IMG/VR virus record: IMGVR_UViG_2778261172_000006
Coordinates: 1-37,263 of that record
From: a virus
Taxonomy: Duplodnaviria; Heunggongvirae; Uroviricota; Caudoviricetes
Reading direction: 5' to 3' (one strand)
Length of the DNA stretch: 37,263 nt
The position numbers were made by a program, and so were the translations under genes. A model generated the notes under the pieces. It was not told where the DNA came from. It did no database searches and was given only the letters and a program-made list of their open reading frames with translations. This document shows positions 6,186-37,263 of the stretch, one piece after another (within the stretch, counting starts at the first letter, position 1; each line of letters opens with the position of its first letter).

Positions 6186-9008
6186 ATGACGACAGAGTAC
6201 ATCAGGGACTGGCAACAACCGCGCCACGCAGTAGGGCGTGAAGGAACGGGGATCCCCACTCCTGAATCCGCGCTTTCCTCCTGGCTGGATGCCTACCGGG
6301 CAGAGAACGAGCGCCACCAGGAAAAGGCTGATGCGGCGTTCTCCGCCACGCCACTGGGCAACCTGATTAATAAAAGCCTGGACGCACAGGAAAAACAGGA
6401 CAAAACCATCACGCTGGCAGGAGAAGCCAGAAGACAGACACGCGGCACGGTGGATGAAGCCATGGCCTCGCTGCGCCTGCTGCCGTCCTATCTGCGCGAT
6501 CCGCTTATTCGCCACCTCTCCTTCCTGCGCAAAAAACAGGAAGCCGATCTCCGGAAAGAAAAAAATGCCTGGCAGGCAGAAAACTATGCACGCGGAACCC
6601 TGCGCAAGATATTCGTTCGCATTAACCGTGCCGACAGTCGCTGGCTGACACCGGGTTATCGCTCCCTCGCCGGACGTGAGCGTCTGGATGATTTGCTTTA
6701 CCTGCCGCAGCTCAATAAACACCAGATACAGACACTGGCCACCATGACAGCGGCAATGTTCAGCAGCACCTTCGAAACACTCTGTGATGGTTTCGGTGCC
6801 AAAGATGGCGAGCTGACCATGGAGGTGGCACTGAAGGCGTATCAGATGCTGGCCCGCATGGCGTTACACCTGCACACCGTGCCGCCGCATTACGAAGCAC
6901 TGACAACAGACAAAGACCGGAGGAACGAACCGGACACGGAGCTGCTGCCGGGCGCAATCCTTCGTCTGACCTGTGCGGAATGGTGGAAACGCAAACTGTG
7001 GCTGTTACGTTGCGAGTGGCGGGAAGAACAACTCCGTGCCGCCTGTCTGGTTTCCAGAAAAACATCGCCCTATCTGAGCCAGGACGCGTTAAGCGAGTTT
7101 CGCGCACAGCGCGAGAAAACACGCGATTTTCTGAAAAGTTTCATGCTGGAAAACGAAGACGGGTTCACGATTGATCTCGAGACAGTGTATTACGCGGGAG
7201 TAAGTAACCCGGTTCACCGTAAGGCAGAAATGATGGCCACCATGAAGGGGCTGGAACTTCTGGCCGAAGCCCGTGGCGACAAAGCGGTGTTTCTGACTGT
7301 CACCTGCCCGTCAAAATACCACGCCACAACGGAGAACGGTCATCCGAACCCCAAATGGAACGGGGCCACCATGCGCGACTCCAGCGATTACCTGGTTAAC
7401 ACGTTTTTTGCGGCGGTCCGCAAAAAACTGAACCGCGACGGTCTTCGCTGGTATGGCATCCGCACGGTGGAGCCTCACCATGACGGCACCGTGCACTGGC
7501 ATATGATGGTCTTTGCTCATCCGGAAGAAATCGACAGCATCGTGGCCATCACCCGCGATATTGCCATTCAGGAAGACCGCCACGAGCTGGGTGATGATAT
7601 TACCCCACGCTTTAAGGTGGAGTATGTCGACGGCTCAAAAGGCACACCAACCAGCTACATCGCCACCTACATCGGAAAGAACCTGGACAGCCGCGCCGTG
7701 GATGGCATCGACCCGAAAACGGGCAAGCCACGCGTTGACCACGAAACAGGAAAATCAATGACCGAGAGCGTGGAACGCGCCATCGGCTGGGCGCGCCTTC
7801 ACCGGGTCCGCCAGTTCCAGTTCTTTGGCATTCCCTCCCGTCAGGTGTGGCGTGAACTCCGCCGCCTTGCCAGCCAGATGGCACGCAACCCGGAAGGCCC
7901 GCAACGGCTGAAGAATGACGCAATGGATGCGGTACTCGCTGCCGCCGATGCCGGGTGTTTTGCCTCCTACATTGAAAAACAGGGCGGCGTACTTGTTCCA
8001 CGCAAAGACTACCTGATTCGCACCGCCTACGACCTCGCAGATGAGCCGAACGATTACGGCGAACAGAGCGTACAGATTTACGGGATCTGGTCACCACTCA
8101 TCGGGGAATCCTCCCGTGTGTGCACGCACCCGGATAACTGGAAGCTGGTAAGACGTAAACCGGAAGCGGAAGACAACACCCGCGAAAATGGTTTTGACCT
8201 TCAGGGCGGCCCTGCCGCCCCTTGGACTCGTGGCAATAACTGTCCCCGTGTACAGGAAACGGACAACAACGGGACAGAACAGCCGGAAGAACGGCCAGCA
8301 CCGTGGCCGCAGCTTCCTGACGGCATTGAAGTGAACGAATGGATGCGCTCACTGAAACGGCACGAACGCCGGGCGCTGATGCGTTCGCTTCGTGACAAAC
8401 AGGCAAAAAACAGCAGTGATGAAATGCAGAGCTGGACACAGAGCCGCAAACAGCAGCGGCCTTTGCCTGATAACCACGAATTACTCGCTAGAGAATGGCG
8501 GGAGTCTGCTGAATCTCTCGGCCTGCATATCGGTGAACAACAAATGCAGCACCTGTTACGGGGCGGCAGTCTGTACGTTGACGGCAGCATCATTGCACCG
8601 CAGGGATTTGAAATTGTACGCAAACCGGATACCCGCCCGGACAGCCGAATCACGCAGCTCTGGCAACGCCTGAGCCGTAATCACGGCGTAAGCAGCACGG
8701 AGATCCGCCATAACCCGGTCGCCAGCTATCTGGAACAGCTGGGGGCATCAGACCCTGAAGCCGCCGCACGCCTGGCATCCACACTTCAGCAGGACCAGAA
8801 CACCATGAAAACACCCGTTACCGTGCTTTCTGACATGCTGCGCGCCATCCGCGACGCAGAGCACGCACAGAGAATCAGTGAAACCACTGAACGCGCCCGC
8901 CGCAAAGCAGACCTGCTGCGGGGTGGCCTGACCAGTGGAAACAAAAAACAGACAGAAACGGGATTCACAAATCCCGTAAATGAGCAAAAAACGCGCCGCG
9001 ATATATGA
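6186..9008 (+). CDS. A: replication initiation endonuclease, P2 gpA family, with long C-terminal extension
   Basis: 940-aa ORF; HxH-type motif (TVHWHMMVF) and P2 A-like core around residues 330-600; position between early genes and the cargo region. Confidence 0.88.
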   Translation: MTTEYIRDWQQPRHAVGREGTGIPTPESALSSWLDAYRAENERHQEKADAAFSATPLGNLINKSLDAQEKQDKTITLAGEARRQTRGTVDEAMASLRLLPSYLRDPLIRHLSFLRKKQEADLRKEKNAWQAENYARGTLRKIFVRINRADSRWLTPGYRSLAGRERLDDLLYLPQLNKHQIQTLATMTAAMFSSTFETLCDGFGAKDGELTMEVALKAYQMLARMALHLHTVPPHYEALTTDKDRRNEPDTELLPGAILRLTCAEWWKRKLWLLRCEWREEQLRAACLVSRKTSPYLSQDALSEFRAQREKTRDFLKSFMLENEDGFTIDLETVYYAGVSNPVHRKAEMMATMKGLELLAEARGDKAVFLTVTCPSKYHATTENGHPNPKWNGATMRDSSDYLVNTFFAAVRKKLNRDGLRWYGIRTVEPHHDGTVHWHMMVFAHPEEIDSIVAITRDIAIQEDRHELGDDITPRFKVEYVDGSKGTPTSYIATYIGKNLDSRAVDGIDPKTGKPRVDHETGKSMTESVERAIGWARLHRVRQFQFFGIPSRQVWRELRRLASQMARNPEGPQRLKNDAMDAVLAAADAGCFASYIEKQGGVLVPRKDYLIRTAYDLADEPNDYGEQSVQIYGIWSPLIGESSRVCTHPDNWKLVRRKPEAEDNTRENGFDLQGGPAAPWTRGNNCPRVQETDNNGTEQPEERPAPWPQLPDGIEVNEWMRSLKRHERRALMRSLRDKQAKNSSDEMQSWTQSRKQQRPLPDNHELLAREWRESAESLGLHIGEQQMQHLLRGGSLYVDGSIIAPQGFEIVRKPDTRPDSRITQLWQRLSRNHGVSSTEIRHNPVASYLEQLGASDPEAAARLASTLQQDQNTMKTPVTVLSDMLRAIRDAEHAQRISETTERARRKADLLRGGLTSGNKKQTETGFTNPVNEQKTRRDI
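8956..8980. repeat. 25-bp palindromic element, copy 1 (AAACGGGATT-CACA-AATCCCGTAAA)
   Basis: 8-bp inverted repeat ACGGGATT/AATCCCGT with 4-nt spacer, inside the 3' end of A. Confidence 0.7.
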
Positions 9009-9084: not shown

Positions 9085-10044
9085 ATGAAAATTTGTATCG
9101 ACGACGGCTCCACCAACATCAAGCTGGCATGGACTGAGAACGGCGAACGCCGCAACGCCATCAGCCCGAACAGCTTCAAGTCGGAATGGTCTGCGCCGTT
9201 CGGTGGCACGCAGCCCGCGAACTACATGCTTGATGGCGTGCGCTATGGTTTTGATCCGGTCAGCGATCGCTTTGTCCAGACGACCGACACGCAATACCAG
9301 TACAGCGATGTGAATGTCATTGCCATTCATCACGCGCTGGTCAAATCAGGCATCACGCCACAGGAGGTGGATGTGGTTGTCACCCTGCCACTGAGCGAGT
9401 ATTTCGACACAAACGCACAGCCGGACATGGCCAACATCAACCGCAAAAAAGCGAACGTTATGCGCCCGGTGGAGTACCAGAACGGCGAAGCATTCACTAT
9501 CCGTAACGTGCGGGTTATGCCTGAATCCATTCCGGCTGGCTTTAAGGCACTGGCTGACATGAGTCCGTTTGAATCCCTGCTGATTGTGGATTTAGGCGGA
9601 ACCACGCTGGATGTGGCAAAGGTTCAGGGGCAACTGGCAGGTATCAGCCAGGTGTTTTGCGATCCACACGTAGGCGTTTCCCTGATGGTCGATGCCGTGC
9701 TGTCGGTGATGGCCGCTAACGGTATGCGTACCAGTCACCACATCGCCAATACCATTATCGAACATCGCCATGATGAAGCCTGGTTGCGCCAACACATCCA
9801 CAATGACGCGCATTACGCCAGCCTGATGGCGGTTATTCGTGAAAAGGAAGAAACACTGAAACAACGCGTGATCCGCGCGCTGGCGGGTTTTTCGGGTTAC
9901 GGACGGGTGATGGTTGTCGGTGGCGGGGCGGAGATTGTGGCACCCGCTATCCGCGAAGCCTGCGGAGTTAATGCGACTTTCATCGCGGACGGGGTGCCAC
10001 AGTTTGCTCTGGTTAATGGGCTGTACGCAATGGACAAGGAGTAA
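9085..10044 (+). CDS. parM: ParM/StbA-like actin-type segregation ATPase
   Basis: 319 aa; N-terminus MKICIDDGSTNIKLAW, SDVNVIAIHHAL, VMPESIPAG, DLGGTTLD and VVGGGAE match remembered plasmid R1 ParM motifs along the whole length. Confidence 0.85.
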   Translation: MKICIDDGSTNIKLAWTENGERRNAISPNSFKSEWSAPFGGTQPANYMLDGVRYGFDPVSDRFVQTTDTQYQYSDVNVIAIHHALVKSGITPQEVDVVVTLPLSEYFDTNAQPDMANINRKKANVMRPVEYQNGEAFTIRNVRVMPESIPAGFKALADMSPFESLLIVDLGGTTLDVAKVQGQLAGISQVFCDPHVGVSLMVDAVLSVMAANGMRTSHHIANTIIEHRHDEAWLRQHIHNDAHYASLMAVIREKEETLKQRVIRALAGFSGYGRVMVVGGGAEIVAPAIREACGVNATFIADGVPQFALVNGLYAMDKE

Positions 10045-10048
10045 ACCA

Positions 10049-10363
10049 ATGACGACACCAACCAGACGGATAAGTTTCTATCTGAAGCCCGCCGCCGTCA
10101 ATAGTGAACGGAAGGCGTGTAATTACCTCGACAGCCTGCCAGCCTCTGAACGCAGCCGCGCGCAACGCGCGGCCTTTCTGGCCGGGCTGGCACTCATAAA
10201 ACGCGATCCTGCATTTGCCTATTGGTTGGCCGAATGGCCGGAAGAAGGAGCTGCGCCAGCAAAGAATAATATTCAGAGTAAATATGCCAGCACACCTGCC
10301 ACCGGAAGCAATCACAGCACTAGCGAGATAAGAAAGAACATTCAGTCATTTTTCCCGGAGTGA
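10049..10363 (+). CDS. parR: ParR/StbB-like centromere-binding adaptor
   Basis: ATG at 10049 with AAGGAG RBS; RRISFYLKP...CNYLDSLPASERSRAQRAAFLAGLAL parallels R1 ParR (RRTIAFKLNP...CDTLDSIPQGERSRLNRAALTAGLAL). Confidence 0.75.
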   Translation: MTTPTRRISFYLKPAAVNSERKACNYLDSLPASERSRAQRAAFLAGLALIKRDPAFAYWLAEWPEEGAAPAKNNIQSKYASTPATGSNHSTSEIRKNIQSFFPE

Positions 10364-10382: not shown

Positions 10383-10814
10383 ATGGCAACTATTCCCAAA
10401 AAATGGTTACAACGCAAAATCGCAGACCTTGAATCGTGTCGTGAAGACATCCCATTTGGCCTTGATGAAAACGATCACAATATGTTAATCGCACTGAAAA
10501 TCGCACTCACATCGCTGGAAGCGAAACCTGTTGCATGGACTGATGATGAGGAACTGCGTGATGTCAAGCAGTATGGTTTCGGTGAGATATTTCAGTGTCC
10601 GCCAGATAAATACGCGGATCCGCGCCGTGTTATCCCTATGTATCAAGAGCCGCCAGCGCCAGCAGTACCAGATGGGCTGGTTAGAGCGGTGCGTTTCTAT
10701 GAACAGGTTAAGCGTGAAAATCCGCCAGCCGAAACCGGAGCATGGAAAGACGCTGTTGACTGGGTGCTCAAAGAGGCCTGCCAAGTTGTAAACACTGGCA
10801 TCAAAGGAGACTGA
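10383..10814 (+). CDS. hypothetical protein (143 aa)
   Basis: ATG with GGAGAGG RBS; contains motif IALKIALTSLEAKPVAW. Confidence 0.55.
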   Translation: MATIPKKWLQRKIADLESCREDIPFGLDENDHNMLIALKIALTSLEAKPVAWTDDEELRDVKQYGFGEIFQCPPDKYADPRRVIPMYQEPPAPAVPDGLVRAVRFYEQVKRENPPAETGAWKDAVDWVLKEACQVVNTGIKGD

Positions 10815-10815
10815 T

Positions 10816-11025
10816 ATGGCTATTGCCGCAAGTTACACCATGCATCTCTATTGTGATTGCCTCCAGTGTACAGATGGCAAATATAAGTCGCCAGACTTCG
10901 GTGAGTATATAGGTACGTCATGGGCTGGCTGTGCAAAAGAGGCGCGCAAGGATGGCTGGCGAATAAGCAAAGACAAAACGCGTGCTTTTGCGCCCGGGCA
11001 TAAAGTTTTGAGGATTAACAAATGA
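10816..11025 (+). CDS. hypothetical small Cys-rich protein (69 aa)
   Basis: ATG 1 nt after upstream stop; CDCLQC...C pattern. Confidence 0.5.
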   Translation: MAIAASYTMHLYCDCLQCTDGKYKSPDFGEYIGTSWAGCAKEARKDGWRISKDKTRAFAPGHKVLRINK

Positions 11026-11282
11026 CCACTTTAACCGACAAAGAACTGATTAAAGAAATCAAAGAGCGCATAGGCAGCCTAGACGTGAGAGACAATATTG
11101 AACGCCGTGCTTATGAAATTGCTCTGGTATCGCTGGAAGCAGAGCCAGTAGCATGGATGCATGTAAATAACGGCATCGGAATACCAGCAATAACAAGGAG
11201 TAAAGAGGTTGCAGAGAGTTGGTTATCAAAAGGCTGGTATGTCCAACCCTTACATCTAGCCCAGCCTGCATCAAAGCTATAG
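11022..11282 (+). CDS. hypothetical protein (86 aa)
   Basis: ATGA overlap with upstream ORF; shares motif IALVSLEAEPVAW with the 10383 ORF. Confidence 0.5.
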   Translation: MTTLTDKELIKEIKERIGSLDVRDNIERRAYEIALVSLEAEPVAWMHVNNGIGIPAITRSKEVAESWLSKGWYVQPLHLAQPASKL

Positions 11283-11292
11283 AAATGAGCCA

Positions 11293-11319
11293 AAACGCCC
11301 TCTTCCAGGGCGTTTATTT
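11293..11319 (+). terminator. intrinsic terminator after the parMR-linked operon
   Basis: 9-bp stem AAACGCCCT/AGGGCGTTT with 5-nt loop followed by TATTT. Confidence 0.6.
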
Positions 11320-11322
11320 CAA

Positions 11323-11349
11323 TGCACAATAGTGCACAAATTTGCACAA
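11323..11349. repeat. three TGCACAA heptamers phased at exactly 10 bp (11323, 11333, 11343)
   Basis: Direct reading; a fourth copy at 11415-11421 and a GGATCCGT direct repeat at 11393-11411 lie nearby. Confidence 0.7.
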
Positions 11350-11848
11350 TTTTTTTGAACGACTTTTTGCCCTTCCGGCCCGCGGGGCGACTGGATCCGT
11401 CAAGGATCCGTGCGTGCACAAAAAAACGCGCTTTTTCTGCGCGCAGGTGACGGGGGAACAGCCCGCGTTTCAGGGGGTAAATAGCATTCCCTGAACGATG
11501 TCGCAGCGACACAACAGAATGGCTGTCTTTCTCACGCTGAGCGTAAAAAAGACGTGAGGGCTTTTGATTTGATGGGGTGGCAGATAAGGCCGTCAAAATC
11601 GCACTGAGGCGGCGAGAACATGCAGTCAGCGCAGTGGGATTGCGTAAGAGTCTGACCGTCGATGATGGAAATAAGCAGGAAAGCGTCGTGAAATTATCTG
11701 ACTGATACAGGAGCTGGAGAGTCGGGGCATAAATTTTTTATGCCCCGGCGAAGCAGCAGACAAGCGAAGCGCGTCAGCGATACGGCACCTTGCCGACCAT
11801 ACTTCATAAGTGCAAAATACGAGCAAAGAAATCAATGGAGGCTGTCTT

Positions 11849-12373
11849 ATGGTCATTAATTACAAGCAGTTAAGAGAAAAACGGGAGCAGGTAAAGGAGA
11901 GCTTTCGCCGCAATGAAGATCTGACCCCGCTTGTACGCCTTGCCCAGGGCATTGTTGACGCTTATGAAATCTCGCTGGAGCTGCCATCACAGACCTGGAC
12001 AGATAGCGACGGTAATCGCCAGCATTACATTTCATGCGGACTGGAAGCAGCCGAAGGATTTCGCAGAATGCCTTTATCCCAGATCCCTGCCGCAACCCCC
12101 AAAGCAAGAGGCAGCAATGATGAGCGAAAACTGACTTTCAGCATTGAGACAGTGGTTGACGACACACCTGGCGAAGTCGCGTTCGTGCACACTCCTGTTT
12201 CGATCGCAATGTATAACGATGAAATACAGGTTCGCGTTAATAATAATATCGTGCCACTTAAAGAAGGTAATTCACCCTACACCACCGTTTGTGAAGCCAT
12301 TCAATATTACGTTCTCTCTGAAATTGATAATCTCAAGCCTGACGGCACCCAGAAAATGGTTCAACTCTGGTAA
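11849..12373 (+). CDS. hypothetical protein (174 aa) between cos-proximal region and portal gene
   Basis: ATG at 11849 with GGAGG 8 nt upstream; convergent with Q and ending in a strong hairpin terminator. Confidence 0.55.
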   Translation: MVINYKQLREKREQVKESFRRNEDLTPLVRLAQGIVDAYEISLELPSQTWTDSDGNRQHYISCGLEAAEGFRRMPLSQIPAATPKARGSNDERKLTFSIETVVDDTPGEVAFVHTPVSIAMYNDEIQVRVNNNIVPLKEGNSPYTTVCEAIQYYVLSEIDNLKPDGTQKMVQLW

Positions 12374-12379
12374 AAAGGA

Positions 12380-12404
12380 CAGCCCCATCACGGGGCTGTT
12401 TTTT
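12380..12404. terminator. bidirectional intrinsic terminator between the 174-aa ORF and Q
   Basis: CAGCCCC-ATCA-CGGGGCTG hairpin flanked by AAAAA upstream and TTTTTT downstream. Confidence 0.65.
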
Positions 12405-13434
12405 CATCAAGAAGAGCATAAGAGTTAAAACGGATCACCTCTTCGCCAAGCCAGTCATTGATATGCTTCATGGCCTCCATGACGGGCATCAGCTCGTTAA
12501 TTGCGTAAACCCGCGCGGCCTTCTCCACATCACCAAACGCACTTTTTTCACCCGGCATCGCCCCCATCAGTTGCGGCGGAACGCGGTGCGCAGCCAGCAC
12601 GTCATCACGGGATGCCGCCTTAACATTCATGAACTCATCTTTTGCGGTGATCTGCTGGAACGGCAAAATTTGCACACCTTCTTTGCCCCCGTTGGGCGCA
12701 TGAATGAGCACGTTTTTAAACGCACCACCACCACGTGCACCCTGTAACGTTTCTTTCAGGGAGTCCATGCTTTCGCGGTTTACCTGTGCTGCACCGATGT
12801 AGATGATGCACCCGGCGTGGGATCCGTTGTCGTAATACAGTTTTCTGAACATGTCCGCCGAATGAGACAGGCTGGCCGAGAGTAATGCGCCGAGATATTC
12901 CGGCATGCCGTAGATTTCCTGGTTAATATCCGGATTCATCAGGTGGCACACTTTGCCAGGGCGAAACTGGAACGCGTCCTTGCCATCCTGCACATACCAC
13001 CATGATTCAAGATCGCTTCCGCGTCGCATGTATTTCGCCAGTGCGTGCCGTAATTTAAGCGGTTCGCCGAGCATATTGCTTCGAAGCTCAAGGAATGCGT
13101 TACCGAACACAAACCAGTCCAGCGCCAGCGCCGAGAAATCCTGCCGGGAAAGCAGCGGGTGCGGGATGTAGCAACCGAGTAATACATTGCGCTTAAAGTA
13201 AAGCGCAGACTGATGCCAGGACGTTTGCCGGGCAGCTCTCGCCAGACCGTACCAGTCCACCGGGGTTTCATACCACCGCCCGTTATCAGCACAGTACATA
13301 TTGTCCAGCAGGTCATGCCCGGTCAGGCGATAAGGACCATCAAATGTGAATGCACTGAGCGATGATTCTTTCCTGAGCGCATCAGCGAGATCAATGCGTG
13401 AACTCATGCGCACTTTTTTATTTTTTCTGCTCAT
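12388..13434 (-). CDS. Q: portal protein (P2 gpQ family)
   Basis: 348-aa ORF; start overlaps P stop on the minus strand; P2 Q-like sequence and position next to terminase. Confidence 0.9.
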   Translation of the reverse strand: MSRKNKKVRMSSRIDLADALRKESSLSAFTFDGPYRLTGHDLLDNMYCADNGRWYETPVDWYGLARAARQTSWHQSALYFKRNVLLGCYIPHPLLSRQDFSALALDWFVFGNAFLELRSNMLGEPLKLRHALAKYMRRGSDLESWWYVQDGKDAFQFRPGKVCHLMNPDINQEIYGMPEYLGALLSASLSHSADMFRKLYYDNGSHAGCIIYIGAAQVNRESMDSLKETLQGARGGGAFKNVLIHAPNGGKEGVQILPFQQITAKDEFMNVKAASRDDVLAAHRVPPQLMGAMPGEKSAFGDVEKAARVYAINELMPVMEAMKHINDWLGEEVIRFNSYALLDEKTAP

Positions 13435-26450: not shown

Positions 26451-26480
26451 AAGGCCCGCTATCGGGCCTTAATTTTTATT
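26451..26480. terminator. bidirectional terminator between the convergent tfa genes
   Basis: AAGGCCCG-CTAT-CGGGCCTT hairpin followed by AATTTTTATT. Confidence 0.65.
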
Positions 26481-27003
26481 CAGGCTTTTGTGGCCATTCA
26501 GGATTTGCCGTATCCACACGGCTGACCAGAACACTGTAGCGTTCCCATGACTCCAGTCGTGCGCGCTCCTCATCCGTCGCCATATTCAGCCTGACAGCGC
26601 GTTCCAGTGGCTGAATAACGCTTTCTGCTTCGGAAAGTAACGCAGCCTTTTGTGATTCGGCCTGTTGTTGCTGTTCATCAGCCGTATAAATCCGTTTAAC
26701 CACAGCTCCGTCCTTAAACATCCACTTTCCTGAATCATCAGCGCGGCGGTTGGCTGTAATATCGGGAACCTCAACGACGCTAAAGCCTTCAGGGTTAAGC
26801 GTAGAGGCATCCTTGGTGATAGCGACAATAATATTATTTTCATCGTAAACAATCTTTATTGTGTCTGGCTGAAAGTTTTTCACTTCCTCATACCAGTTTT
26901 TTCCGTCTTCGGACCACAACCAGATAACGTCAAAATTCTTTGTTAATTCGTACTGCTCCAGTGTTTTAGCATTACCCGTTTTTATATTCTTTAAGTGCAT
27001 CAT
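26476..27003 (-). CDS. alternative tail fibre assembly chaperone (Tfa', inverse orientation)
   Basis: 175 aa, N-terminus [14 protein letters not shown] paralogous to G; minus strand inside the invertible segment. Confidence 0.85.
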
Positions 27004-27004
27004 A

Positions 27005-27985
27005 CTAAACGCTCGCTACATTATACCAGGTGCCATTTATATACTTTTGAACGGGTCTGTAATAAACGCCCGCTATATTATCGGCAGAGTTGGACCCTGT
27101 ATCCTGAACATTAATACCAGACAATACATGACCTGACGGGCACTGGAAATTCCATGTTTGCCAGTTGTTCACTCCATAATATTGCTGTGAACCAAGTCGA
27201 ACATCTTTCACATATCTGGAATCAAAATTGCCATAGTTGCCGGGAATAACTTGCGAGCCGCAAAGCCAGTTCCCGTTATTATCCATGTACGCCTGACCAT
27301 CGGTACCATTGGCTGTCCTTGAGTTATTAATCATGTAGATGCCAAATTGCTTATTCCCCAATCCACCTATCATGAACTTGCGGTCGGCGTGATTCTGGCG
27401 AAGCAACGCCTGAGCGCTATCAGTGTTAACTATATTTTTCCCAAAGATAGCGTTGTTATCGCGCATCTGAATCCACATACCATTACTGCTGTTAATAGCA
27501 AAACGGTCTGAAAGTGTCTCCCCTGAAACATTAAGACCACGCCCCATCGAAACAGCGCCAGTAGCGTTATTAATCCATAATGGCCTTAATCCGTTATAAG
27601 TCCCCATGTTGTCACCGGAGTTTGTCAACATGAAGTATGTATTTGAACCATCATTACGAATAAAGAATCCGTAATTACCATAAGCAATACGTAGGCCGTT
27701 TGCTGATTTTGATATGACTTCGCCATTTACAATGGCATTGACAAGAACATACAAAGCATCCCATTTAAGATTCATCAGGTCTTTTGTTGTGGTGCTTTGT
27801 TTGCTTCTCCATTTGAAATATTCATTGCCGTTGTCGCCTGTTTCAAACCACATGAATGAATCAGTATCGCTGTCGGCATCATTTTTAAAACCAATCTTCG
27901 CCCAGTCGGTATTTCGAATCCATGCAAGAATTGAGTCGTTTTCAAAAGTAAGTCCACCGGACAAGATATCGCCTGTCTTTTGCAC
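27005..27985 (-). CDS. alternative tail-fibre C-terminal cassette (no start of its own; reading frame stays open through the right crossover site to 28027)
   Basis: Frame upstream of the track start reads [15 protein letters not shown], matching EYLGLQETVN at the H crossover; C-terminus [11 protein letters not shown] paralogous to the H C-terminus. Confidence 0.8.
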
Positions 27986-28001
27986 GGCGTTACCAGCCTT
28001 G

Positions 28002-28035
28002 TTTACCGTTTCCTGTAAACCGAGGTTTTAGATAA
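28002..28035 (-). repeat. right crossover (gix-like) site
   Basis: TTTACCGTTTCCTGTAAACCGAGGTTTTAGATAA. Confidence 0.85.
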
Positions 28036-28089
28036 TGGCCGTTTCCGGCCTGCATGGCATGATTTGCGCTTTTGGACGGGAGATTCAGC

Positions 28090-28677
28090 GTGCTGATTGG
28101 CTATGTAAGGGTATCAACAAATGACCAGAATACAGACCTGCAACGAAACGCTCTTGTTTGTGCAGGATGTGAACAAATATTTGAAGATAAATTAAGCGGG
28201 ACAAAGACAGACCGACCGGGATTAAAACGCGCTTTAAAGCGCCTTCAAAAAGGTGACACGCTGGTTGTCTGGAAACTGGATCGCCTCGGGCGAAGCATGA
28301 AACATCTGATTTCTCTCGTCGGGGAACTACGGGAGCGAGGAATTAATTTTCGCAGTCTGACCGACAGCATAGATACATCTTCTCCAATGGGGCGTTTTTT
28401 CTTCCACGTGATGGGTGCCCTGGCTGAAATGGAACGTGAATTAATTGTTGAACGTACACTGGCCGGACTGGCGGCAGCACGCGCACGGGGGCGCACAGGC
28501 GGACGTCGACCGAAGCTGACAAAAGAACAGCATGAGCAAATAGCAAGGCTAATCAAAAACGGGCACGACAGAAAACAACTGGCAATAATTTACGGCATTG
28601 GTATATCGACGATTTATCGTTACCACCCCGCAGGAGAATCAAGGGGAACAATTGAGAAGAGTCAGGAAACAAAATAA
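28090..28677 (+). CDS. serine DNA invertase (Gin/Pin/Cin/Hin family)
   Basis: GTG start after GGGAG; VLIGYVRVSTNDQNTDLQRNALVCAGCEQIFEDKLSGT... is near-identical to the remembered Mu Gin sequence, including the catalytic Ser region and C-terminal HTH. Confidence 0.95.
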   Translation: MLIGYVRVSTNDQNTDLQRNALVCAGCEQIFEDKLSGTKTDRPGLKRALKRLQKGDTLVVWKLDRLGRSMKHLISLVGELRERGINFRSLTDSIDTSSPMGRFFFHVMGALAEMERELIVERTLAGLAAARARGRTGGRRPKLTKEQHEQIARLIKNGHDRKQLAIIYGIGISTIYRYHPAGESRGTIEKSQETK

Positions 28678-34445: not shown

Positions 34446-35555
34446 ATGACCGACACCACCATGCAATTGCTCAGTCAGGGCACAGACCCCGTGAAAATGC
34501 CGGATTTTGATATTCTCGCCGAGGGTAAAACGCTGTCCGGCGTGGCAGAACGCCTGATGAGCCTGTCACTGACCGACAACCGGGGATTTGAGGCGGACCA
34601 GCTCACCATCACGCTGGATGATGCTGATGGTCAGTTGCAGTTGCCGCCACGGGGCGCTCGCCTGACGGTTCTCATTGGCTGGAAAGGCGAACCGCTGACA
34701 GAAAAAGGCACTTACATTGTTGATGAAATTGCTCATGAAGGACCGCCCGACAGACTGACCATTTCAGCCAGAAGCGCAGATTTTCGGGATGAATTTAACG
34801 TCAAGCGCGAAGTGTCCTGGCATGATGTGACCGTTGAGCGAGTGGTATCCGCCATCGCTCATCGGTACGGTCTGAAACCGCAAATCAGCGAAATGCTGAT
34901 GGATATCGAAATCGACCACGCCGACCAGACCGAAGAAAGTGACATGTCCTTCCTTACGCGCATGGCGGAAATGCTGGGCGCAATCACCACGGTAAAAAGC
35001 GGCAATCTGTTATTCATCATGCCCGGTGGTGGCGTGAACGCACAGGGCCAGCCGTTGCCCTCGTTCGCCATTACACGCAGCAGCGGCGATCGCCATCAGT
35101 TCCGTATTGCTGACCGCGAGGCGTATACGGGGGTACGCGCCTACTGGCTTGATCTTAATTACGGGAAAAAGAAAAAGGTCAGCGTAAAACGCCGTAAACC
35201 GCCAAAACCCAAAAAGGAGAAAAGCAGCAGCCGTGAAGGTGATTATATGGAAGGTGCGGAAGGCAATGTGTTTGTGTTACGCAAGACTTATCAGAACGAG
35301 CAGGCAGCAAGACGCGCAGCGGCGGCAAAGTGGCAGCAGCTACAACGCGGAGCCGCATCATTTTCCATCACGCTGGCACGTGGACGTGCAGAACTCTACC
35401 CCGAAATGCATGGCACGGTAACAGGATTTAAAAGCGAGATTGATAATCAGGACTGGATTATTGCAAAAGCCGAGCACACCATTGATAACAGCGGCTTTAC
35501 CACGCAGCTTGAGCTTGAGGCAAAAATCCCGGAATGGATAGCGGAAACAGAGTGA
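34446..35555 (+). CDS. D: late tail protein D (P2 gpD family)
   Basis: ATG at 34446 after GGGAGGGAG; 369 aa; position immediately before ogr. Confidence 0.88.
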   Translation: MTDTTMQLLSQGTDPVKMPDFDILAEGKTLSGVAERLMSLSLTDNRGFEADQLTITLDDADGQLQLPPRGARLTVLIGWKGEPLTEKGTYIVDEIAHEGPPDRLTISARSADFRDEFNVKREVSWHDVTVERVVSAIAHRYGLKPQISEMLMDIEIDHADQTEESDMSFLTRMAEMLGAITTVKSGNLLFIMPGGGVNAQGQPLPSFAITRSSGDRHQFRIADREAYTGVRAYWLDLNYGKKKKVSVKRRKPPKPKKEKSSSREGDYMEGAEGNVFVLRKTYQNEQAARRAAAAKWQQLQRGAASFSITLARGRAELYPEMHGTVTGFKSEIDNQDWIIAKAEHTIDNSGFTTQLELEAKIPEWIAETE

Positions 35556-35597
35556 GCAACTTAGAATAGCGGCAGCACCACGTTAAGGGAGGTCGCT

Positions 35598-35858
35598 ATG
35601 TTCCGTTGTCCGCTTTGTGGCGCATCTGCCCGTATCCGCACCAGTCGTCCAGAAAATGATTCAAACACCGTGCGGCAAAAGTATTACCAGTGTAACAATC
35701 TGGAATGCGGCGTATGCTTCTCAACACTGGAAGCTTTCCATAAATTCACATCAAAACACGCCTCCGGCGTTCACTCTTCAGAAGGTATCCCGTGGCATGA
35801 TCTGCCAGCTTCACACAGGGGAAACAATCAGATGAGTTTGCCTTTACCTCAGAATTAA
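35598..35858 (+). CDS. ogr: zinc-finger late transcription activator (Ogr/Delta family)
   Basis: MFRCPLCGASARIRTSR...YYQCNNLEC has the C-x2-C ... C-x4-C pattern and resembles P2 Ogr; GGAGG RBS. Confidence 0.85.
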   Translation: MFRCPLCGASARIRTSRPENDSNTVRQKYYQCNNLECGVCFSTLEAFHKFTSKHASGVHSSEGIPWHDLPASHRGNNQMSLPLPQN

Positions 35859-36256
35859 CAGACAGAATTGCCGGAGTAACAAAAAAAGCGATACACCCAT
35901 TTACCCGGCAGTACCACTCCCCCGCCCCATAGCTGGCAGTGAGGCGGGATGTTTTGCCTACCCGCCAGCAGGCACCATCGTGGAAATATCCAACATTGAA
36001 GGACGCCCGGATAAGCCTGTTATCAGGCAAATCTTACCCATCGGTCATAACCTGCCTGATGTAAAGCCCGGCGAACAATTGCAACAACAGCGTGCAGAAG
36101 TGTTTCAGCATGTCACGACTGACGGAAGCTGGCGCAGAAAAACCGACCAGCAAATCCAAGAAGAAAAGCGCGTAAAACGATCACTGCTGATGTGGCGTTT
36201 CTTTATACAAGCTGCTATTTGCGATATGCTGAACACATCAACCTGTGGAGTGCATT

Positions 36257-36883
36257 ATGAAACAAAAATCAAAGTCTGCTGCCATTGCTGCTATTGCTAC
36301 AGCTCTGACAGCATCACTGGCTCCGGTGCCAGCTAAAAGCACGATACTACCAACAACAGTTATTGAATCCGTGACACACGCCAGAGTGGTTTCAATGCTT
36401 ACATTTGAGCATCATGATGGTCAGGTGTTTCTGCCTCTTGAAGAAGCTATTGAATATATCAACGGGCTGAATGACAACATGCGTGCCGCGCTCAATGCAG
36501 TCATTGAAGAACGACAGAACAGAGGCAAGGGAGCTCTGTTTGCTGACAAAACCGCAAAAATCATAAAAATATGCGAAGAGTCACTTAAGCAGCACAGCCG
36601 TGTTAAAGAGGCTGTCAAAATTGTAATGGATCCGGATAACCTGGCAAAAATGTATCCGGATAGCATGGAGCAAAGAATCGCCTATCGCAATAAACTGGTT
36701 CGTTTTGGTCGGGCAATTGCGCAGGGAGAGTTTATCGCTCGTGATGCCATCAACGCCATCAAACGAAGCACCGCACCAGACAAAACGACCAGCCTGGGCA
36801 ATACGCTGTCTGACGGAAATGTGAAAGCAATGATTATTGCCGAGCATAAAAACATGGGACTCCCGGCACCGGAGTTTTCCTGA
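36257..36883 (+). CDS. hypothetical protein (208 aa), upstream partner of YafO-like gene
   Basis: ATG at 36257 with GGAG RBS; Ala-rich hydrophobic N-terminal segment AAIAAIATALTASLAPVPA; stop overlaps downstream start (ATGA). Confidence 0.55.
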   Translation: MKQKSKSAAIAAIATALTASLAPVPAKSTILPTTVIESVTHARVVSMLTFEHHDGQVFLPLEEAIEYINGLNDNMRAALNAVIEERQNRGKGALFADKTAKIIKICEESLKQHSRVKEAVKIVMDPDNLAKMYPDSMEQRIAYRNKLVRFGRAIAQGEFIARDAINAIKRSTAPDKTTSLGNTLSDGNVKAMIIAEHKNMGLPAPEFS

Positions 36884-37263
36884 TGGCAAGCAAAGTAAGC
36901 ATTCATAAAGATGTTGAATACCAGGACATTGCAAAAGTTTACGGAAAGGCTCTGGAAAACTGGTTAAATACCGGTGTTCTCCCTGACAGATTCGGCAATG
37001 AAGGGCAGTGGGAAGATAACGCAAGATTATGTGGTTCGTTTGTATATAAATTACACATAAGACTACCGTCAGAACCACCATGGAAGAAAAGCAAAGCCCA
37101 AATAGACAGAACTTCAAATATCTATCTGGTTTATACAAGGCACTGGATGGATTATGACAATATACAAATCATCAGCATCATGGCCCCAGATGCTCACGAA
37201 AAAGCCAAAACTTCTTTCATGGCTGAGCTGGAAAGACGGGCAGAAGAATTCCAGAACTCATAA
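36883..37263 (+). CDS. YafO-like toxin (type II TA ribosome-dependent mRNA interferase family)
   Basis: 126 aa; GVLPDRFG, HIRLP, SNIYLVYTRH and IISIMAPDAHEKA parallel remembered E. coli YafO motifs (GVLPDIFG, HIHL, EAHLVYCQG, LIAILKPEPHKLA). Confidence 0.65.
   Translation: MASKVSIHKDVEYQDIAKVYGKALENWLNTGVLPDRFGNEGQWEDNARLCGSFVYKLHIRLPSEPPWKKSKAQIDRTSNIYLVYTRHWMDYDNIQIISIMAPDAHEKAKTSFMAELERRAEEFQNS

Follow-up and report, generated by a model that had tools for sequence, protein, structure and literature searches.

The YafO toxin of Escherichia coli K-12 is an mRNA interferase, which is toxic when produced alone and is neutralized by its upstream partner. To our knowledge, YafO is among the least understood of the RelE-type toxins, and the K-12 yafN-yafO pair is the only one that has been studied. 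The present analysis concerned a YafO-family toxin gene and its partner gene at the end of a 37,263-nucleotide stretch of DNA (the window; positions 1 to 37,263 of the IMG/VR record IMGVR_UViG_2778261172_000006, a Caudoviricetes virus), where the two genes followed the last core gene of a P2-like prophage. We read the pair, with a probability of about 0.55, as a type II-like toxin-antitoxin cassette composed of a predicted YafO-family RNase and an uncharacterized putative antitoxin of about 200 aa. The toxin was of a known kind and the partner family was uncharacterized; the pair was not a new kind of system. In a recent review (Gerdes 2025), PF_YafO was listed among the BECR-fold families, with about 1,000 entries and the gene order antitoxin-toxin, and an earlier survey associated YafO with Phd and with unclassified partners identified through guilt by association (Leplae et al. 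2011). Surveys of Pseudomonas prophages reported YafO as a toxin without a partner; such orphans were reported because no protein-family library names the partner of about 180-215 aa. Other type II toxins with the BECR fold (HigB, YafQ, RelE, and YoeB) are paired with antitoxins of 70-100 aa (HigA, DinJ, RelB, and YefM) that carry helix-turn-helix (HTH), ribbon-helix-helix (RHH), or Phd domains, whereas none of these was detectable in the partner from the window.

The gene structure was read directly from the sequence. The partner gene (36257-36883, + strand) was an open reading frame (ORF) of 208 aa running from the ATG at 36257 to the TGA at 36881-36883, with the Shine-Dalgarno (SD) sequence GGAG at 36247-36250, 7 nt 5' of the ATG. 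The GTG at 36245 was set aside as an alternative start since it lacked the SD sequence found ahead of the ATG. The toxin gene (36883-37263, + strand) encoded 126 aa, and its end coincided with the last base of the window. A second GGAG (36871-36874) preceded the ATG of the toxin gene, and the partner stop and toxin start codons overlapped in the sequence TGATG (36881-36885) with one base in common. The whole junction, SD and overlap together, spanned 36871-36885 on the + strand, and this arrangement predicted translational coupling of the two genes. Both ORFs were as described in the initial annotation, whereas the ATGA junction given there has to be replaced by TGATG. An antisense ORF of 185 aa (36581-37138) was also set aside, since it overlapped two genes under strong purifying selection. 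The GC content was about 0.55 in the tail genes and dropped to 0.42-0.47 across the pair, which bore out the earlier remark that the DNA became AT-richer past ogr.

The profile search assigned the 126-aa protein to the Pfam family YafO_toxin (PF13957) with E=1.1e-27 and 96.5 bits, covering profile positions 2-101 of 101, where the gathering cut-off is 25 bits. The structure model was confident and RelE/HigB-like, with the RelE-like alpha/beta fold of the RelE/ParE superfamily (BECR). The likeness to YafO noted in the initial annotation was borne out by both results. The score against the NCBIfam equivalog NF007377/PRK09885, which represents K-12 YafO, was 42.7 bits, under the cut-off of 153 bits, and the identity to K-12 YafO was 31%. 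The toxin is therefore assigned by sequence to the YafO family, in a subfamily separate from K-12 YafO, rather than as its orthologue. Residues H58, R76, and H105 were conserved across the toxin subfamily, K-12 YafO, and the phage homologues, and the protein is predicted to be a RelE-fold endoribonuclease of the YafO family. The isoelectric points (pI) of the subfamily were near neutral, with a median of 6.8, compared with 7.0 for K-12 YafO. The pair shared with yafN-yafO the Pfam family of the toxin, the antitoxin-then-toxin order, and the tight coupling. It differed in the partner, which was basic, helical, and of no known family at 208 aa, whereas YafN is an acidic Phd/YefM-type protein of 97 aa; it also differed in its setting, as prophage cargo with its own putative promoter, whereas yafNO sits in an SOS (dinB) operon.

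Searches of Pfam, NCBIfam, PADLOC, and PHROGs gave no match to the partner, and neither did a sequence-profile search of the PDB. Its comparison with YafN gave no BLASTP alignment at E<=100 and no match to Pfam PhdYeFM, which agreed with the initial annotation that the partner does not resemble YafN. The family to which it belonged comprised 38 clusters at 90% identity, with 32 representatives among 1.84 billion proteins; it was found in 18 of 185,579 species genomes, exclusively in Enterobacterales, and in 24 of 5,426 complete E. coli genomes. By sequence, this is an uncharacterized family that falls in no known one, yet is not peculiar to the window locus. The best-conserved stretches were SLAPVPA-x-S at the N-terminus, VFLPL near residue 58, FGRA near residue 150, and AEH-x2-LGL-x2-P-x-F at the C-terminus. 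The AlphaFold2 (AF2) model was mostly helical, with long helices and a predicted local distance difference test score (pLDDT) of 74.5, and fold searches gave only generic helical-bundle matches. A DNA-binding domain of the HTH, RHH, AbrB, or Phd type was sought, and neither a Pfam or NCBIfam domain nor a fold match other than the generic bundles was obtained; nucleic-acid binding by a protein with a pI of 9.3 would nevertheless be compatible with the data. Many members of the family are labeled "iron-sulfur cluster assembly scaffold protein SufA" in RefSeq, for example in the loci L002 (9399-10025) and L034 (5916-6695). SufA/IscA proteins are of about 120 aa and are recognized by a HesB/IscA-type Fe-S biosynthesis domain, and no such domain was found in Pfam or NCBIfam even at E<=1; the label therefore looks like an annotation error. 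The coding sequence in L034 was also called about 50 codons too long. One member listed as an 80-aa "short partner" (P0101) was a gene-calling artefact, since its full frame of about 203 aa was intact. The literature search yielded no paper on the RefSeq accessions of the partner family.

The two genes behaved as one unit. A YafO gene lay directly 3' of the partner gene in 17 of the 18 species genomes, both genes were present in all 24 cassette-bearing E. coli genomes, and the gap between them was -3 to +12 nt in 21 related loci. The partner was 43-62% identical to most of its relatives and 27-28% identical to the most distant ones, compared with 56-82% for the toxin, showing that the partner diverges faster. 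Purifying selection acts on both genes, as shown by ratios of nonsynonymous to synonymous substitution rates (dN/dS) of 0.05-0.19 (partner) and 0.03-0.05 (toxin) where dS was not saturated. None of the 24 E. coli genomes had a disrupted reading frame, and the frames were intact in 15 of the 18 species. In two species (L017 and L023), the toxin gene carried a nonsense mutation and the partner gene was intact; in an endosymbiont (L031), both genes were degraded and the toxin had lost H58, G38, and H105; and in one species (L029), only a fragment of the partner gene was present. An intact toxin with a broken partner was found in none of the species loci examined. This asymmetric decay, although the numbers are small, is the pattern expected if the toxin gene is harmful without its partner. 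The pair is a strictly conserved, tightly coupled unit of two small, co-oriented genes with the putative antitoxin first, as in type II toxin-antitoxin systems.

The C-terminus of the partner was compared with the proteins encoded ahead of other phage-borne YafO genes. In the extended family, E196 and H197 of the tail AEHKNMGLPAPEF (36839-36877, + strand) were invariant, and L200, G201, and P205 were nearly so. A tblastn search with the toxin identified distant members of YafO_toxin encoded by phage CUS-3 and by a Flyfo siphovirus; in each case the gene came after an ORF that lacks an annotation (193-199 aa in CUS-3 and 190 aa in Flyfo). Scanning IMG/VR for YafO loci yielded 78 loci, and in all 64 that had upstream DNA present, an ORF of 179-217 aa ended -47 to +16 nt from the toxin start. 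The partners formed three groups: the window family (27 of 64), a CUS-3-like group (7 of 64), and a group from E. coli phages such as PhiR40_1 (30 of 64), whose members are deposited as "YafM antitoxin". The partners from CUS-3 (ECRS218_0007, phrog_18235), Flyfo (UIW10320, phrog_35514), and PhiR40_1/PhiR55_1 ('YafM') were all like the window partner in their setting: in each phage cargo locus, an ORF of this size lay directly 5' of the PF13957 gene. The first two groups and the Flyfo protein also had in common an H-x3-G-x3-P-x-[FW] tail at the extreme C-terminus (EHKNLGLSAPEF in the window family, SHKRFGMEAPKW in CUS-3, and SHILLGAEPPNW in Flyfo). Profile comparison with hhalign gave 93% probability over 117 columns for the CUS-3 family with Flyfo, 73.6% (E=2.9e-5) over the last 57 columns for the window family with Flyfo, and 23-25% over the last 18-27 columns for the window family with the CUS-3 family. 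No similarity of the CUS-3 and Flyfo partners to the window partner was detectable outside the C-terminal 20-60 residues. A C-terminal module is therefore probably homologous across these three sets of proteins. Because the C-termini of the antitoxins RelB, YefM, and Phd wrap their toxins, the tail is by analogy the best candidate for the toxin-binding element.

The 'YafM' group was rejected as a homologue of the window partner, since profile comparison detected no similarity of its members to the window, CUS-3, or Flyfo partners. The PhiR40_1 pair (L115, 222-1212; also the IMG/VR loci L072-L114) consisted of a 144-aa toxin and a 179-aa partner, and pairs of this type were located in the initial 1.2 kb both of lambdoid phage genomes and of many prophage contigs. 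The names 'YafM antitoxin' and "YafO/YafM" were found as annotation labels only; the literature search found no paper characterizing YafM or the long YafO partners. The pair in CUS-3 (L035, 1417-2420) was located between mnt and the hkcB/DNA-transfer protein gene. On the P22 map, this is the location of the superinfection-exclusion gene sieA, and by that analogy an exclusion role would fit the position.

The location of the pair was resolved by comparison with E. coli UMNK88, in which a region 99.9% identical to 35859-37263 of the window was found; the region was also present in 15 other genomes. UMNK88 has a P2-like prophage between dmsA and serS. When both of its junctions were compared with the empty serS-dmsA site of K-12, the attachment (att) core was identified as the serS terminator, a duplicated 20-bp sequence (AAAGCGCCCGCAGGCGCTTT). 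The right-end copy of this core in the UMNK88 prophage was 192 bp 3' of the toxin stop codon, which is beyond the end of the window. The pair is accordingly placed inside attL-attR as prophage cargo, with attR outside the window, on the assumption that the window genome has a junction of the UMNK88 type; its integrase region was 94-95% identical to those of UMNK88-type prophages. The initial annotation had expected attR between ogr and the pair (35859-36256), which is ruled out by this comparison, and it had left the choice between prophage cargo and a separate islet to an empty-site comparison; cargo was the alternative that stood.

The stretch between ogr and the pair was occupied instead by a baseplate relic and the cassette leader. 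The ogr/delta gene (35598-35858, + strand; Pfam Ogr_Delta PF04606, E=5.2e-14, in agreement with the UMNK88 annotation) encoded the zinc-finger late-gene activator and was the last core gene of the P2-like prophage. Starting 20 bp past its stop codon, an internal piece of 93 codons from a baseplate/spike gene was found as a pseudogene relic (35878-36156, + strand), in frame and with no internal stops, which is an incomplete coding sequence in UMNK88 according to PGAP. It was 92.8% identical at the nucleotide level to positions 7995-8273 of L002, within a 565-aa ORF that matched phrog_2258, 'baseplate protein', at 4e-233. This source belongs to a different contractile-tail element, beside raiA in E. 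coli A2 and 7_33_46A, and about 1,025 bp following the relic in the source element were deleted in the window. The baseplate part alone of the 35859-37263 query was matched by 40 further E. coli genomes. The relic overlapped a 12-nt att-like match, ACAAAAAAAGCG (35879-35890, unstranded), which corresponded to the left flank of attB and the first 6 nt of the att core; its blastn-short E of about 0.04-0.05 was obtained in a small search space. This weak match was the only att-like sequence found in 35859-36256. It is possibly the relic of an older attP/attR just past ogr and could be due to chance. Together, the relic and the att-like match may be traces of a second element that brought in the cassette, either by tandem integration or by recombination.

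The leader (36157-36256, + strand), which contained a putative sigma-70-like promoter and the SD sequence, began exactly where the window became similar again to the raiA-linked cassette. Between the two unrelated E. coli contexts, the identity covered about 100 bp of leader 5' of the partner ATG, the two genes, and a 74-bp trailer after the toxin stop codon; the terminator AAACCCGCAGCGTAAAAACTGCGGGTTTTCTTTTT was located in this trailer, just beyond the window. The promoter-like element consisted of a -35 sequence, TTTATA (36202-36207), a 17-nt spacer, and a -10 sequence, TATGCT (36225-36230), inside the conserved block TTCTTTATAC. The arrangement TTCTTTATAC...TATNCT was found upstream of the partner gene in at least nine loci from different genera. 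A promoter is inferred only, since the score of the element in the consensus scan, 8/12, was below threshold. A search for operator-like inverted repeats 5' of the partner gene revealed no palindrome that was conserved, only the promoter-like block, and no Rfam match for a structured RNA was obtained at E<=1 in 35000-37263. These comparisons point to a self-contained cassette of about 1.2 kb that is mobile between contexts. In E. coli A2 (L002, about 10700-10800), about ten 8-nt units, GCGATGAA / GAGATGAA, were repeated in tandem between the cassette terminator and an 'ATP-dependent nuclease' gene, which was followed by a DNA methyltransferase fragment.

The pair was also found in other genomic contexts. 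In a P2-like prophage of Serratia fonticola, it followed ogr, and in two other P2-like elements, it was located between gpA and the portal gene or beside gpA. The gpA-portal region is the main defense hotspot of P2 (Rousset et al. 2022; 2026 NAR survey). Elsewhere, the pair came after the homologous last baseplate gene of other tail clusters, beside hok/gef or the ATP-dependent nuclease, or formed two-gene chromosomal islets at rne-sbcB in Morganella, yegS-yegQ, and grpE-ung. A plasmid addiction role was rejected, since the partner was present on just 1 of 72,556 plasmids. None of the deposited phage genomes contained a pair of the window type, whereas prophage contigs of IMG/VR did. The pair resembled the P2-like cargo and defense genes old, tin, and fun/Z in being variable, AT-richer, horizontally exchanged cargo at a permissive site, with relatives in the gpA-portal hotspot; it differed in that the ogr-attR position is not among the hotspots in Rousset et al. 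2022 and the 2026 NAR survey.

The hotspot of the window itself, between gpA (6186-9008) and the portal gene (12388-13434, - strand), contained a plasmid-type partition pair at 9085-10360 (+ strand). The first gene encoded a ParM/StbA actin-like ATPase of 319 aa (PF06406, 1.8e-82; PF21523, 3.9e-68), and the second was a Plasmid_stab_B/ParR-like ORF (PF10784, 5.9e-26); the parMR-like genes had no PADLOC match. A partition system is surprising in a P2-like phage that is integrated, and the corresponding site of UMNK88 was occupied by genes for an AAA ATPase and an S8 peptidase. Three or four ORFs of 76-187 aa, with no match in Pfam or PADLOC, filled the interval from the parMR-like genes to the portal gene (10383-12373). 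In the tail region, the segment at about 26476-28677 looks like a Cin/Gin-type invertible tail-fiber segment, judging by the similar ORF layout of UMNK88, where a recombinase-family protein is encoded beside oppositely oriented tail-fiber assembly and gp53-like genes.

Since the partner was not YafN-like and of no known family, and the pair was strictly conserved, coupled, and under purifying selection, the original proposal of a new antitoxin type or a two-gene defense/addiction module is a fair hypothesis. In the type II-like toxin-antitoxin cassette that we favor, the partner and toxin genes would be flanked by a promoter of their own and by the terminator just past the window. The partner would be made first, from a transcript common to both genes, and would neutralize the toxin by direct binding, most likely through the C-terminal H-x3-G-x3-P-x-[FW] tail. 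If the partner were lost or inactivated, the freed YafO-family toxin would cleave mRNA, translation would stop, and the cell would be arrested. Possible triggers are the shut-off of host expression by an infecting phage and the loss of the prophage, so that competing phages would be excluded by abortive infection and/or the prophage would be stabilized. The cassette probably serves phage exclusion and/or prophage retention. Several observations weigh against this reading. The partner was about twice the usual size of an antitoxin, it was basic (median pI 9.1 for the family) whereas YafN is acidic (5.5), and, unlike most type II antitoxins, it had no recognizable DNA-binding domain. The proposed homology between the partner groups is based on a short stretch at the C-terminus, for which the hhalign probabilities were modest (23-74%). 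Neither the partner nor the toxin had a match in PADLOC-DB 2.0 at E<=1, so a defense role rests on location. Finally, the N-terminus of the partner resembled a cleavable Sec signal peptide, and a genuine signal would place the partner in the wrong compartment for binding a cytoplasmic RNase.

That N-terminus, Ala-rich and hydrophobic as initially annotated (MKQKSKSAAIAAIATALTASLAPVPA), is the starting point of a doubtful alternative, in which the partner would be exported or inserted into the membrane through a Sec-type signal instead of being a conventional cytoplasmic antitoxin. Its first 26 residues (36257-36334, + strand), as judged by residue conservation and hydrophobicity, had the tripartite design of a signal peptide, namely a K-rich n-region, a hydrophobic core of 12-15 Ala, Ile, and Leu residues, and SLAPVPA followed by K/Q-S, where P-V-P-A fits the -3/-1 rule. 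The net charge was +1 to +4 in nearly all members of the family. The hydrophobicity was in the range of the E. coli Sec signal peptides of OmpA, MalE, and DsbA and well below that of a transmembrane helix. The same layout was kept in distant members despite a different core sequence, and the sequence-unrelated 179-aa partner of PhiR40_1/PhiR55_1 also opened in a signal-like manner (MNPFNAITFAALCGPLAxPAAMA-Q). An exported partner could be an envelope sensor or exclusion protein coupled to the cytoplasmic RNase effector, or else an antitoxin for which export, and not proteolysis, determines the amount in the cytoplasm. It seems less likely still that the partner is truly exported or membrane-targeted in such a way that its cytoplasmic residence time or its anchoring in the inner membrane controls the RelE-fold RNase, and equally so that the lability of the antitoxin would come from secretion or a perturbation of the envelope, for example by phage genome injection, instead of proteolysis. 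The conservation of the segment argues against export: residues L17, A19, S20, A22, P23, V24, P25, and S28 were invariant in 23 sequences of 43-96% identity, which is far above the usual conservation of signal peptides. A structural role is suggested by the AF2 model, with a pLDDT of about 83 for the N-terminal helix, in which the strand 21-25 paired with another invariant strand, 56-60 (VFLPL). Moreover, the CUS-3 and Flyfo partners had the C-terminal tail and no hydrophobic or signal-like N-terminus, a few members of the window family itself (P0092, P0102, and P0111) were poorly hydrophobic in this region, and a cytoplasmic toxin would be out of the reach of an exported protein.

Strict co-occurrence of the two genes, the large size of the partner and its lack of antitoxin-type domains, and the occurrence of the pair in phage cargo and defense hotspots would also suit a two-component defense system, in which both proteins are needed and the partner acts as a sensor or activator of the RNase; in systems of that type, the loss of one or the other gene does no harm to the cell and abolishes defense. 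We consider this unlikely, given that K-12 YafO acts as a toxin alone and is held in check by the protein encoded upstream, that toxins were lost while partners were kept and never the reverse, and that the antitoxin-first order with translational coupling is the classic route to an excess of antitoxin. The pair adjoins a pseudogene relic and has decayed in some species, as an inert hitch-hiking remnant with no present function might. Such a remnant is highly improbable in view of the dN/dS values of 0.03-0.19 across both genes, the frames kept intact in the 24 E. coli genomes and 15 of the 18 species, and the conservation of the promoter-like element and the terminator.

The signal-like N-terminus, if real, would represent an unusual route for the control of a cytoplasmic toxin, and if export is true, its presence in two unrelated partner groups, the window family and the 'YafM' group, would be a case of functional convergence. 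If the partners are antitoxins, they would constitute a new antitoxin family, many apparently orphan YafO toxins would be explained, and the spreading "SufA" mis-annotation in RefSeq would be corrected. The 1.2-kb cassette would then be a compact candidate for phage exclusion at the ogr-att and gpA-portal sites of P2-like phages and in the immI region, beside mnt/ant, of the P22-like phage CUS-3.

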